Shown: positions 40,729 to 47,955 of the stretch, one piece after another | Layout of the letters: each line of letters starts with the position of its first letter | Position numbering within the stretch: position 1 is the first letter of the stretch | DNA from: a virus | Taxonomy: Duplodnaviria > Heunggongvirae > Uroviricota > Caudoviricetes | Length of the DNA stretch: 49,715 nt | Strand: one strand, 5' to 3' | IMG/VR virus record: IMGVR_UViG_2851949629_000006 | Coordinates: 1 to 49,715 of that record | Position numbers and translations under genes: made by a program | Notes under the pieces: model-generated | Seen by the model: only the letters and a program-made list of their open reading frames with translations | What the model was told of the DNA's origin: nothing | The model's database searches: none

Positions 40729-41268
40729 TTACCAAAACTTGTACCACGGGGATTTATCCTTCAATGGACAATCCTTCCATCGTGTGGCCAACCATTCATA
40801 TTCTTTAAAATATGTGTTTATGTTTTCTTTTTCTCTAATAGCTTGTATAAGAGGTAGCGCAATCTGATAGTTATTTACAACGGAGCTGTAAAATACTTCC
40901 TTAATCATGGTCTCATCATAAGTTTTCCGCTTCACGCTCACAGCCATGCGTTCGTAGAAACCTAGACAGTAAATTATTTCTCTCTTCTCTATCTTTTCTT
41001 CATCCGTAAGATCAGCCTGCCCATTGCTTGGATACATATAAGAGCGGAATGATTTGTTCGATTCGTGAATGCGGCGCATAGTAGATAGGCCTTTCTTATA
41101 ATCTACATCAAACCTGCTTTCACCAAGGAATACTGAAGTGTGTACTTTTCTCGCTGTATTTACATTATAAATAATAGTAGCGATAGCTATGAACAAGCCA
41201 AGCGAAACCGCGACTGCACTTACGATTTGAGCCACAGCCATGGCAAATTGCATTTCTTCACTTAACAC
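40729..41268 (-). CDS. N-terminally membrane-anchored protein (179 aa), accessory gene
   Basis: GTG start with GGAGA RBS; one N-terminal TM helix (FAMAVAQIVSAVAVSLGLFIAIATIIY) then a soluble domain; AT-rich codon usage. Confidence 0.5.
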   Translation of the reverse strand: MLSEEMQFAMAVAQIVSAVAVSLGLFIAIATIIYNVNTARKVHTSVFLGESRFDVDYKKGLSTMRRIHESNKSFRSYMYPSNGQADLTDEEKIEKREIIYCLGFYERMAVSVKRKTYDETMIKEVFYSSVVNNYQIALPLIQAIREKENINTYFKEYEWLATRWKDCPLKDKSPWYKFW

Positions 41269-41485: not shown

Positions 41486-42142
41486 TCAGAAGAACCCTGC
41501 CTTGTCGTTGATGTACTCCGCGTGAGTCTGGATATCACGCAGGCATTTGCTCACACCGACGATGTAGCAGAACATGGTGGTCAGCTCCGCCGCCGCGCCC
41601 GATACGTCGTGCCCGTCGTCCTGTAACTGGTTCAGCAGATTCATCAGCAGTGAGTTCTCCGTCAGGCCGAGAACACCAGACGGAGAATGAATCAGACTGC
41701 GGTAGCCAGGCTTCAGTGGGGCGCTGTATTCTTTTTTGTCTTCCAGCTTGATCGCCTCCATAATGGCGGGCATGAAGCCTGACAAGACCTTCTCCACTTT
41801 TGTTTCTTGTTGTCTTAAACGTTTCTCGCATTCAATGAAGTAGCGTCGCACCTGGCGACCTTTTTCGTTACGCTCGACCATTGCCAGCTCTTTGGCTGTA
41901 TCGAGGGTGAGGTGGTACTCTTTGCGGTTGTGGCCGCCTCTACCAGATGTTTGCTTTCCCAAATTGGAAAGCAAAATATAGTCTTGATTTTCAATGAATT
42001 CGTATTCTGAAATTCGATTTGTAATCCATGCTGCAAACACCTTTTTAACACCTAAAAAAGCGTGCAGATCGCGGGCATTACAAAGTAGGGCTGTTTCGTT
42101 AGATATAGTGCCGTTGAATACGGGGATGAGTTGAGCGTTCAT
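41486..42142 (-). CDS. antirepressor (AntA/Ant-like)
   Basis: 218 aa; N-terminal ...[22 protein letters not shown]... and ...[35 protein letters not shown]... resemble the AntA/AntB N-terminal domain. GGAG RBS. Confidence 0.6.
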
Positions 42143-42296
42143 GATGGTGTCTCCACTTAGCGAATTACATCACCACCGCAACGCCAATTACTGGTGGTGA
42201 ACTGAACAAGGTTGGCGTACCGGCCTAAGTGGTACCGGCGTCCTTTCGGACCCCTGCCCAGCCCACCATAATTCGGATATAGCTGTGCTTAACGCA

Positions 42297-42320
42297 TAAA
42301 AAAACCACGTCTGGCGTGGT
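42297..42320 (-). terminator. intrinsic terminator/attenuator within the ant leader (or 3' end of a small RNA)
   Basis: Minus strand reads ACCACG-CCAGA-CGTGGT followed by seven T (plus strand A-run 42298-42304); located about 110 nt downstream of the predicted ant promoter and about 150 nt upstream of the ant start codon. Confidence 0.5.
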
Positions 42321-42410
42321 ATGCGCCACTTAGTAACTCGGGACGCCAATCCCGGCACTGGATTTTGCCAGTGCCCGATTACTATGGCACAAGAGGAGTG
42401 CGATGTAAAT

Positions 42411-42533
42411 TTACCGTAAAGGTAATAATAAATGCATAACTCACGTTATTTCAACCCTATGTGGTTTGATTGATCCCATTTCAGAAAATACCTGCCTATT
42501 TTTTTGCCAGTATGCGTATACTTTCGATAGAAT
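42411..42533. promoter_or_regulatory. divergent promoter region: operator TTACCGTAAAGGTAA (42411-42425), motif TATGTGGTT (42458-42466), and a plus-strand sigma70-like promoter TTGCCA-17bp-TAGAAT (42505-42533)
   Basis: Operator identical in form to O_L/O_R; on the minus strand a TTGAAA -35 with the -10 overlapping the operator is positioned to drive the ant leader. Confidence 0.5.
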
Positions 42534-42562
42534 GTTAACCCTAGAGGTAGTTGGGGGTGCCC

Positions 42563-43066
42563 ATGAACACGAAGAGAGTTGCAGCGATGAGGCATAGACG
42601 CTTGACCTTGAAAAAGTCTGAAAAAGAAAAAGAGAAAAAGATGGTGATTGAAGCAGCCGCCATAGCAACTGCCAATGCCATCAGGATTCATGATGAAGAA
42701 GTTGAGCAAAAATACCCGGTTATGTTCATCACTGAATACGACCAGCATGAGGCATTGTTAAAAATCCGGGGCACATCTTTTGAAGGAATCTTGGCAGATA
42801 AGCTTCATCGTGCCTCATGTCAAACGAATATAATGCGACCTTACGAGTCAAGGCTAATCGAAACTGGACGCTCCAAGGATAAGCAGCAATTAGTTGAGAT
42901 GATAAAGCGGTATTATAAGTCATCTTTTAAGCCTACAGCGTCACATGAGGTTGTAATGCGAGAAGTACCAAAGATGTCTGTTGAAAAATCGCATGCAATC
43001 TCGCGCAGGATGTTTGCACGCACTGCTGAAGATATGGCTCAGGAGCTCTACGACGATGCCGAATAA
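42563..43066 (+). CDS. hypothetical protein, upstream partner of the YafO-like gene (candidate antitoxin/immunity)
   Basis: 167 aa from the ATG at 42563 (ORF track starts at TTG 42551); basic N-terminus; stop overlaps the downstream start (ATGCCGAATAA). Confidence 0.45.
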   Translation: MNTKRVAAMRHRRLTLKKSEKEKEKKMVIEAAAIATANAIRIHDEEVEQKYPVMFITEYDQHEALLKIRGTSFEGILADKLHRASCQTNIMRPYESRLIETGRSKDKQQLVEMIKRYYKSSFKPTASHEVVMREVPKMSVEKSHAISRRMFARTAEDMAQELYDDAE

Positions 43067-43562
43067 ATTCCAGGGGTTGGTTCACCCTGGAATTTTTGGG
43101 AAGGACCCTGAGCTAATACCTATCAAAAACGCGTTCATAGATCACTGGCGCTACGGTCATCATAAGGATTTCGGAAAGGACACTCTGTTTCGGGATCCAC
43201 CGAAAGAGATGCTGGAATATCACATACGCCACGTTCACGTAAACATCGGAAACTATACTGACAAGTTTGGTGAGAGCGGTACGGAACAATGCTGGAAAAA
43301 CTGGGCATCCGGGAAGAAAGACAAGACCACCAACAAGCATAAAAAAATACCAACCAGTGATGTATATGTGATTTATCTTGTAACGTCTGAGCGACATGCG
43401 TTTCTTCTGGATTACTGGGATGAGCCAGCACACAAAAAAGTAGAAATTGACGAACAGAAACAAAAACTTCTTGTCGAGTGTGACAGAATTTTGCGGCGGA
43501 AAAATTTAGAATCCATGCCGCGCGATGCAAGTTTGTGGGACCCGGAATTTTACGACTGTTAA
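43056..43562 (+). CDS. YafO-family toxin-like protein (candidate type II toxin)
   Basis: 168 aa; segments HHKDFGKDTLFRDP and YHIRHVHVNIGN resemble the YafO segments DTFGRDALYDD and ERVAHIHLANE as I recall them. Confidence 0.45.
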   Translation: MPNKFQGLVHPGIFGKDPELIPIKNAFIDHWRYGHHKDFGKDTLFRDPPKEMLEYHIRHVHVNIGNYTDKFGESGTEQCWKNWASGKKDKTTNKHKKIPTSDVYVIYLVTSERHAFLLDYWDEPAHKKVEIDEQKQKLLVECDRILRRKNLESMPRDASLWDPEFYDC

Positions 43563-43563
43563 T

Positions 43564-43581
43564 GGCCGCTTTCGCGGCCTT
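43564..43581. terminator. hairpin GGCCGCTTTCGCGGCCTT between convergent genes (second copy of the 40644 hairpin)
   Basis: Exact 18-bp repeat of 40644-40661; 6-bp GC stem with TTTC loop; T-rich flank. Confidence 0.5.
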
Positions 43582-43586
43582 TAAAT

Positions 43587-43862
43587 TTACCGGGTTTGTT
43601 TTCGTAATTGTTCGGCACAATAGTCGAGATGTGTTTGCAGATCCTGCATAGACATCTGTGAGCTGGTGACGTAGTTAATCAGTGCAGTCAGTTCGGCAAG
43701 TGGGCCATCGACATTAAATCCATCCTTATCGAGATCCCGGAGTAATTTCATCAAGTGCGATCCCTCCACCAGTGACCTGACGCCTCCCGGCGTGTGAATC
43801 CTTTCGGTAAATCCGTCTTCCAGTGGATAGTGATACCGCTGCATCTTATCTTCTCCATGCAA
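43587..43862 (-). CDS. small protein paralogous to the antirepressor C-terminal domain
   Basis: 91 aa; ...TPGGVRSLVEGSHLMKLLRDLDKDGFNVDGPLAELTALINYV...MQDLQTHLDY... parallels ...[42 protein letters not shown]...[10 protein letters not shown]... of the 41486-42142 product. Confidence 0.5.
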   Translation of the reverse strand: MHGEDKMQRYHYPLEDGFTERIHTPGGVRSLVEGSHLMKLLRDLDKDGFNVDGPLAELTALINYVTSSQMSMQDLQTHLDYCAEQLRKQTR

Positions 43863-47476: not shown

Positions 47477-47955
47477 TCTGGGCATTCGTAAAAGCATACC
47501 GGAAACAGTTGATTATCATGGCGGTGCTTGCTGTTCTGGTCATATCAGGAGTTGTTGCCTGGAGTGTACACGGCAGTCGTCAGTACGACGCCGGGTATGC
47601 GCAGGCGAAAGAAGACCGCAAAACCGAAGATGAGAGAATTCGTCAGCACTACGAACAGGAGAAAGCGATCAATGAACGTGAAGCGCAGCAGAGGATCGAC
47701 CAGGCGCGCAATGATGCTCTTGATGCTGCCGCTCGCGCTGGCCGGTTGCAGCAACAGCTCGTTGCCATCCGTGAGCAGCTCAGGCAGTATAACGCCATTG
47801 TCGGCGCTGGGACGTCAGCCGCAGACACCGGAGTTTTGCTTGCCGACGTGCTCAGTAAATCTCTCGAGAGAAACAGACAACTGGCAGAGTATGCTGACCG
47901 GGCAGCCGAAGCCGGAAGAGTCTGTGAAAAACAGTACGACACCCTGACCAGATAG
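47473..47955 (+). CDS. Rz-like inner-membrane spanin (i-spanin)
   Basis: N-terminal TM helix ([18 protein letters not shown]) then a charged coiled-coil periplasmic domain; last gene of the lysis cassette. Confidence 0.65.
47672..47947 (+). CDS. Rz1-like outer-membrane lipoprotein spanin (o-spanin), embedded in the +1 frame of the i-spanin gene
   Basis: Signal peptide with lipobox [26 protein letters not shown], Pro/Ser-rich mature part; AGGAGA RBS 9 nt upstream of the ATG at 47672. Confidence 0.6.
   Translation: MNVKRSRGSTRRAMMLLMLPLALAGCSNSSLPSVSSSGSITPLSALGRQPQTPEFCLPTCSVNLSRETDNWQSMLTGQPKPEESVKNSTTP

Follow-up and report, generated by a model that had tools for sequence, protein, structure and literature searches.

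A divergent YafO-like gene and a partner of modular build form a candidate toxin-antitoxin moron in phiV10-like prophages of Escherichia coli

In a 49,715-nucleotide stretch of tailed-phage DNA from IMG/VR (record IMGVR_UViG_2851949629_000006; the whole stretch is hereafter called the window), two small genes, which we call A (upstream) and B (downstream), probably form a type II toxin-antitoxin-like moron in which the C-terminal tail of A neutralises a YafO-like toxin encoded by B. This reading draws on sequence comparison, structure prediction and analogy with characterised systems. By analogy with YafO, B would bind ribosomes, cleave mRNA and stop translation. A would be a labile antitoxin of a previously undescribed family, in which a basic N-terminal segment is followed by a dispensable, freely swapped centre and then by an acidic two-helix tail of about 36 residues that would bind and neutralise B. 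The two proteins would be made together, from one constitutive-looking promoter and by coupled translation. Loss of A, whether by proteolysis, by an infecting phage shutting off host expression or by loss of the prophage, would then free B, and freed B would arrest the cell, resulting in abortive infection, superinfection exclusion or prophage addiction. We therefore infer a role in defence or addiction for the cassette; a literature search returned no paper linking YafO-like genes to these phages. The cassette is laid out as follows.

42504-42533, plus strand: promoter-like sigma-70 site (TTGCCA at 42504-42509, an 18-nt spacer, TAGAAT at 42528-42533), with 10 of 12 consensus matches
42563-43066, plus strand: gene A, ATG start, 167 aa, putative antitoxin, phrog_9503 (function unknown)
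43042-43066, plus strand: coupling region, with AGGAG at 43042-43046, the ATG of B at 43056 and the TAA of A at 43064-43066
43056-43562, plus strand: gene B, 168 aa, a divergent member of the YafO superfamily that may act as a ribosome-dependent mRNA endonuclease toxin; phrog_1651, RefSeq WP_074473380.1
43564-43589, plus strand: terminator-like hairpin GGCCGC-TTTC-GCGGCC (43564-43579) followed by TTTAAATTTA, directly 3' of the B stop codon

The pair has the outward form of a type II module, namely two small, co-oriented and coupled genes, one of which is homologous to a known toxin. A preliminary description of this DNA had reported two translationally coupled genes, and this is what we found: A and B overlap by 11 nt (ATGCCGAATAA), and the AGGAG lies 9 nt 5' of the B start. 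Both genes are under purifying selection as judged by dN/dS, and we therefore regard them as real coding genes. The same description had placed a TTGCCA-17-TAGAAT promoter in front of A. Both hexamers are present and the pair is conserved in related cassettes, but the spacer measures 18 nt, not 17. Taken alone, the site is within what chance would produce (6 promoter-like sites, against 4.0 +/- 2.2 in shuffles); a TTTTTTTGCCA ... TA(G/C)A(A/C)T pair (a T-run plus TGCCA, and the -10 element) is kept upstream of cassettes with different A N-terminal types. This promoter diverges from the c4/ant promoter region. The AT-rich island in which the genes had been placed is a mild one, as the GC content of the cassette is below that of the flanking structural genes by a small amount (0.41-0.47 versus 0.50-0.56). 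No inverted repeat was found within 42380-42600, and hence no palindromic operator at the promoter, and the autoregulation that is typical of type II modules is therefore unsupported; nor was a DNA-binding domain detectable in A.

The identification of B rests mainly on comparison at the level of its family. Two stretches of the protein are relevant here.

43167-43244, plus strand: conserved core of B, with G40, D42, F45, R58 and H61 invariant in the close family
43242-43355, plus strand: insertion in B relative to canonical YafO (about residues 63-100), with conserved C79-W80 and W83, lower pLDDT (63-71) and gaps in the hhalign alignment

The two motifs of B that had been likened to the YafO core are both in place, DFGKDTLFRD at residues 38-47 (43167-43196) and HIRHVHVN at residues 56-63 (43221-43244), and their counterparts in the alignment with E. 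coli K-12 YafO are FGRDALYDD and VAHIHL. More broadly, B contains the conserved core residues of YafO (FG[KR]D, the His strand, TSD, Y and AH); specifically, the two proteins share F27, FG(K/R)D, the His strand (H61), (P/R)TSD, Y107 and the A-H126 helix start. Seven residues (H30, R32, H35, H36, D42, R58 and H61) are invariant in the close family of B, and five (F27, G40, H61, Y107 and H126) over its 47-sequence family. The estimate that B is about 35 aa longer than YafO was close, the difference being 36 aa (168 versus 132); the extra length is mostly the internal insertion plus a C-terminal extension of about 20 aa, and not one added end.

A profile search against YafO, as proposed in the preliminary description, succeeds for the family and fails for B alone. 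On its own, B did not match PF13957 (YafO_toxin) even at E <= 10, and hmmscan found nothing for it in Pfam or NCBIfam; these scans therefore do not reproduce the 'YafO family' name that it carries in RefSeq. The gathering score of PF13957 is 25 bits, and relatives of B with identities of 65%, 47% and 43% reach 25.4, 21.1 and 19.7 bits. Close clusters of B number only 14 among 5.8 billion sequences, and a profile built from them retrieved 70 representatives of 50% identity clusters among 1.84 billion representatives. PF13957 matched 26 of the 47 full-length representatives of this family (best E 5.5e-14). When the 47-sequence family was compared by hhalign with 22 canonical YafO sequences, which had been retrieved with the genuine K-12 yafO, the match had a probability of 97.9% and an E value of 4.9e-13, and it was collinear over YafO columns 14-131 of 134. 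The close-family profile matched the same canonical set at E 8e-5, and BLASTP of B against K-12 YafO, as a single comparison, gave E 0.002. The predicted model of B has a RelE/HigB-like alpha/beta fold with a central antiparallel sheet and superposes on RelE/HigB toxins. Foldseek found no significant match for this model in PDB and BFVD, and the B-family profile returned nothing meaningful from PDB chain sequences, with no solved structure matched. The earlier view of B as YafO-like is thus upheld by the family-level profile-profile match and the predicted fold, and B is a twilight-zone member of the YafO superfamily with the toxin fold expected of it. YafO itself binds the 50S subunit and cleaves mRNA in a ribosome-dependent manner 11-13 nt downstream of the AUG (PMC7781912), and by analogy B may be a ribosome-dependent mRNase of the YafO type and may be toxic. 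The toxin call for B is not new, because RefSeq/PGAP already labels the protein 'YafO family toxin'. A search of PADLOC-DB 2.0 gave no match for A or B at E <= 1, and the pair therefore has no link to a catalogued defence system. Truncated homologues of B exist (P0012-P0014), and tblastn of P0102 against plasmids gave no match.

The partner protein A differs in character along its length, and we divide it into three segments.

42563-42652, plus strand: A residues 1-30, strongly basic N-terminal segment (pI 10.7)
42653-42949, plus strand: A residues 31-129, variable, replaceable centre
42950-43066, plus strand: A residues 130-167, conserved C-terminal tail (VMREVPKMSVEKSHAISRRMFARTAEDMAQELYDDAE), the proposed toxin-binding and neutralising module

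A had been characterised as a basic protein of 167 aa. Its overall pI of 9.4 agrees with this, but the basicity is uneven, as residues 1-30 have a pI of 10.7 and the last 38 residues a pI of 5.2. Searches of A against Pfam, NCBIfam, PADLOC and PDB chain sequences found no match, the profile check against antitoxin families included, and PHROGs places both A and B in families of unknown function only. The AF2 model of A is all-helical and of low confidence (pLDDT 63, pTM 0.17), and its best-predicted helices, 140-151 and 155-166, are both C-terminal. Across 28 clusters of A homologues, the last ~36 residues are nearly invariant, while the preceding ~130 residues are sometimes wholly unrelated.

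We also compared A with YafN, a Phd/YefM-type antitoxin. By eye, the tail resembles the YafN C-terminus (MKEEEFDVFE in clade 4, MTDDDFNDFKE in YafN). Homology between the two is, however, unsupported by HMM, shuffles or hhalign: the tail HMM scored -2.2 bits on K-12 YafN, below many shuffles; Smith-Waterman alignment of tail and YafN with shuffling gave a p-value of 0.04 for one clade and 0.08-0.97 for the others; and hhalign of 24 tails against 44 YafN homologues, a set taken from upstream of canonical yafO in 46 genomes, gave E 0.88. The alignment of A as a whole likewise did not match K-12 YafN in hhalign (E 0.4). B is accordingly not paired with a Phd/YefM-type YafN, and the original impression that A is not YafN- or RelB-like agrees with these searches; as far as its sequence can tell, neither YafN nor any other known family is a recognisable relative of A.

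To define the partner more broadly, we surveyed 43 IMG/VR loci and three more distant ones (phage TL-2011b, a Rahnella plasmid and a Vibrio plasmid). All 43 IMG/VR loci are on phage contigs of 6-44 kb, mostly of about 40 kb, and in every one of them the B start lies inside the end of an upstream ORF, with an overlap of either 11 or 14 nt; an overlapping partner ORF is also present in the three distant loci. In the 43 loci, the partner ORFs encode 108-175 aa and comprise at least five unrelated bodies, with an N-terminus that is always basic. Their C-termini behave differently. Over 42 residues they can be aligned gap-free, and they fall into four types, one for each of four clades of B; tail identity follows B identity (Spearman 0.76). 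Loci whose B proteins share 90% identity or more have tails that share no less than 89%, yet the rest of A may be only 22% identical. The window itself shows where the exchange takes place, as DNA similarity to loci with other A types ends at ~42595-42660 and restarts at ~42951-42956, which is A codon ~130 and the start of the tail. Likewise, loci L014 and L018 have the promoter and the first ~10 A codons in common and differ in their tail-and-B units, and L014 and L007 have only the tail and B in common. A candidate second cassette, a minus-strand pair in phage EC.W1-9 (108 aa and 167 aa), was rejected when its proteins proved unrelated.

The most distant partners are also the smallest. Where B identity is down to 29-31%, phage TL-2011b encodes a partner of 59 aa (gp45) and a Vibrio halioticoli plasmid one of 62 aa; in both, the centre is absent and the basic N-terminus runs straight into a tail with the same pattern. 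The Rahnella plasmid partner has 113 aa and a clade-4-type tail. Together, the minimal partners and the mosaics indicate that the A of the window is a core of ~60 residues split by a replaceable insert of ~100 residues. Selection follows the same boundaries (dN/dS is 0.02-0.05 in B and 0.02-0.06 in the tail without the overlap, rises to 0.22-0.26 in the centre and reaches ~0.6 in the first 30 codons), the last four tail codons being constrained by the overlapping B start as well. The intact pair is retained in four clades, at identities as low as 31%. Tail and B are thus inherited as one unit under equal constraint, as a specificity-determining protein-protein interface predicts. Co-inheritance of this kind suggests that the tail binds B, and physical linkage alone could produce part of the pattern; since the breakpoints fall repeatedly 36 codons inside A and not at the gene boundary, such linkage alone does not explain it. 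We propose, from these comparisons of sequence, that the tail is the neutralising element of A.

The same mosaics bear on a reversed topology, which we consider unlikely, in which the basic N-terminal helix of A would neutralise B and the tail would be a ribbon-helix-helix-like dimerisation and DNA-binding domain for autoregulation. The DNA-binding domains of HicB, BrnA and MqsA are C-terminal. However, 16 tails or short partners searched against Pfam (E <= 10) gave only scattered chance matches, none of them to a ribbon-helix-helix or other DNA-binding family, and the tail alignment profile matched no ribbon-helix-helix protein and no solved structure among PDB sequences. The promoter has no inverted repeat, and the same promoter occurs with different tail clades (L014 versus L018), which would leave operator and binding domain mismatched. 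Moreover, the tail is always inherited with B and not with the promoter.

A more elaborate version of the toxin-antitoxin reading takes A to be a 'cassette' antitoxin, with a fixed toxin-specific tail, a basic head and a swappable insert that would act as a phage-factor or protease sensor or as a decoy, so that swapping the insert would retune the trigger of the YafO-like toxin. The pair would then be a diversifying abortive-infection system in the Uetakevirus immunity region. We regard this as quite unlikely and retain the simpler proposal that the tail of A neutralises B.

The genomic setting of the cassette is well defined. Its host element is a phiV10-like Uetakevirus (epsilon15-like) prophage of E. 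coli, the surrounding 24 kb having 95-97% identity to phiV10, phiv142-3 and HEMP4 over 74-78% of its length; this match ruled out a P22-like prophage, which had been entertained as an identity. E. coli 214-4 (NZ_CP025840) carries the stretch at 100% identity, and there RefSeq names A a 'hypothetical protein' and B a 'type II toxin-antitoxin system YafO family toxin'. A and B are inserted between the c4/ant module and the tail fibre gene. One flank is a minus-strand module in which ant (Pfam AntA) comes after the C4 antisense RNA, isrK and the a1/b1 targets (Rfam), and the other is a gp19-like ORF (43587-43862). In phiV10, the Bro-N antirepressor gene directly adjoins the epsilon15 gp19-like gene with nothing between them, and A and B occupy exactly that junction; the cassette is missing from phiV10, phiv142-3 and others. 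Because phiV10 is empty at that position, and because the cassette has its own promoter and terminator, we consider it an accessory insert, or moron. At least part of a 1.2-kb query covering it was found in 189 of 5426 complete E. coli genomes, and only 4 of those 189 carry the A type of the window over at least 80% of the query.

This setting could instead point to a function for the phage itself, with B an RNase for host shut-off or for control of the c4/ant switch and A its regulator or chaperone, and with no part in addiction or defence. The cassette directly adjoins and diverges from the c4 antisense RNA/ant module, and it is found almost only in phage contigs of ~40 kb, both of which would fit. 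Even so, such a function seems improbable, as the cassette is dispensable (it is absent from phiV10 and phiv142-3, among others), comes with a promoter and terminator of its own as do other lysogenic-conversion morons, has homologues outside this phage type on Rahnella and Vibrio plasmids, and has the architecture of a type II toxin-antitoxin pair. That the pair is a hitch-hiking remnant with a catalytically dead B and no toxin activity, as the sub-threshold Pfam YafO_toxin score of B and the truncated homologues P0012-P0014 might suggest, is very improbable in view of the low dN/dS of B and the similarly low value of the tail, the seven invariant residues of the close family, the retention of residues common to canonical YafO and the survival of the intact pair in all four clades.

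Read as a toxin-antitoxin-like moron, the cassette is closest to YafN-YafO of the E. coli dinB-yafN-yafO-yafP operon (PF13957). B is homologous over the whole YafO domain, and the gene order is the same, with the antitoxin upstream and the toxin downstream; a ribosome-dependent mRNase mechanism would be shared by inference only (PMC7781912). The systems differ in that B carries its internal ~35-aa insertion and C-terminal extension and is below the Pfam cut-off, in that A is not of the YafN type, and in that A and B share 11 nt, where a gap of 2 nt separates the genes of most canonical yafN-yafO pairs. In addition, the canonical genes are part of the SOS-regulated dinB operon, whereas A and B are prophage-borne and have their own promoter. 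Sequence identity between B and HigB2 of Vibrio cholerae HigB2-HigA2, or other RelE/HigB ribosome-dependent mRNases, is only 8-16%; HigA2 neutralises its toxin by its N-terminus and has a C-terminal helix-turn-helix, whereas A has no recognisable DNA-binding domain. A small antitoxin that lacks a DNA-binding domain is known in PaaA2, of the PaaA2-ParE2 system (regulator PaaR2) of E. coli O157 prophages, although ParE2 is not an RNase; this system has no sequence relationship to A and B, and no third regulator gene was seen in the window. Modular or 'hyperpromiscuous' antitoxins form partner-swapping networks and, like A, are built of exchangeable modules shuffled by recombination (PMC10440598). 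A is distinct in that its tail stays with the toxin while its other parts swap, and in that no known antitoxin domain is detected in it.

YafO is among the less studied toxins of the RelE superfamily, and to our knowledge YafN is the only partner of YafO known so far. What is new here is a partner family with a head, insert and tail architecture, a long-form YafO subfamily carried for the most part by phages and plasmids, and a fixed insertion site in Uetakevirus prophages. The natural partner mosaics map the likely toxin-recognition element to ~36 residues, and the natural partners of 59-62 aa offer structural studies a minimal antitoxin as they stand. Should the cassette shield lysogens from other phages, a moron region already known in O-antigen-specific E. 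coli podophages would gain a defence gene; if it does not, the result is still a clean annotation correction, as A now goes by 'hypothetical protein' and some records do not call it. We expect the cassette to be of moderate interest to specialists in toxin-antitoxin systems and phage defence, being unsurprising in principle, well defined and directly testable.

Several further observations concern the neighbourhood of the cassette and its relatives. E. coli plasmid pHL15EC-2 (L048 ~2266-2445) has an intact 59-aa partner ORF upstream of an annotated 'YafO family toxin'; this ORF is missing from the PLSDB gene table, itself possibly incomplete, and short partners may be under-called by annotation pipelines. 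Just downstream of the B homologues of phage TL-2011b and the Rahnella plasmid is a conserved 53-aa signal-peptide protein (MKKAFAALFVLLSLVASTQAFAGRCQHD...GGRSADSRPGG), which also occurs in phage EC.W1-9, at another place, and has no annotated counterpart downstream of B in the window; its coordinates in the three elements are L046 3058-3219, L047 3138-3299 and L049 2278-2439. The protein may be a third gene that often accompanies the pair, or simply one more moron.

In the window, Rfam places the C4 antisense RNA (64.7 bits) and isrK (67.2 bits) at 42190-42387 on the minus strand, directly upstream of ant, together with a c4 a1/b1 target element whose 44.3 bits are just below its gathering score. 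The ant gene (41486-42142, minus strand) encodes an AntA-type antirepressor, and the whole is a P1/P7 immI-style antisense-controlled antirepressor module transcribed divergently from A and B. On the other side, the ORF at 43587-43862 (minus strand, 91 aa) corresponds to gp19 of epsilon15 and p24 of phiV10. Its PHROG matches are phrog_450 and phrog_15539; both families match the C-terminal ~80 residues of Ant as well, and by this similarity the ORF looks like a free-standing copy of the antirepressor C-terminal domain. A DUF4760 gene (40729-41268, minus strand; Pfam E 1.6e-30) stands where the GC content of the region is lowest (0.37) and has no annotated counterpart at the corresponding position of phiV10; it may be another moron adjoining the cassette. 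The prophage ends just past an Rz-like spanin gene, where it abuts host yfgI, yfgH and yfgG (window ~47480-47700 and beyond; L001 11556-11774), and the cassette is therefore ~4-5 kb from the prophage right end. The window also carries a tRNA-Arg gene (anticodon TCT) at 23624-23700 on the minus strand.
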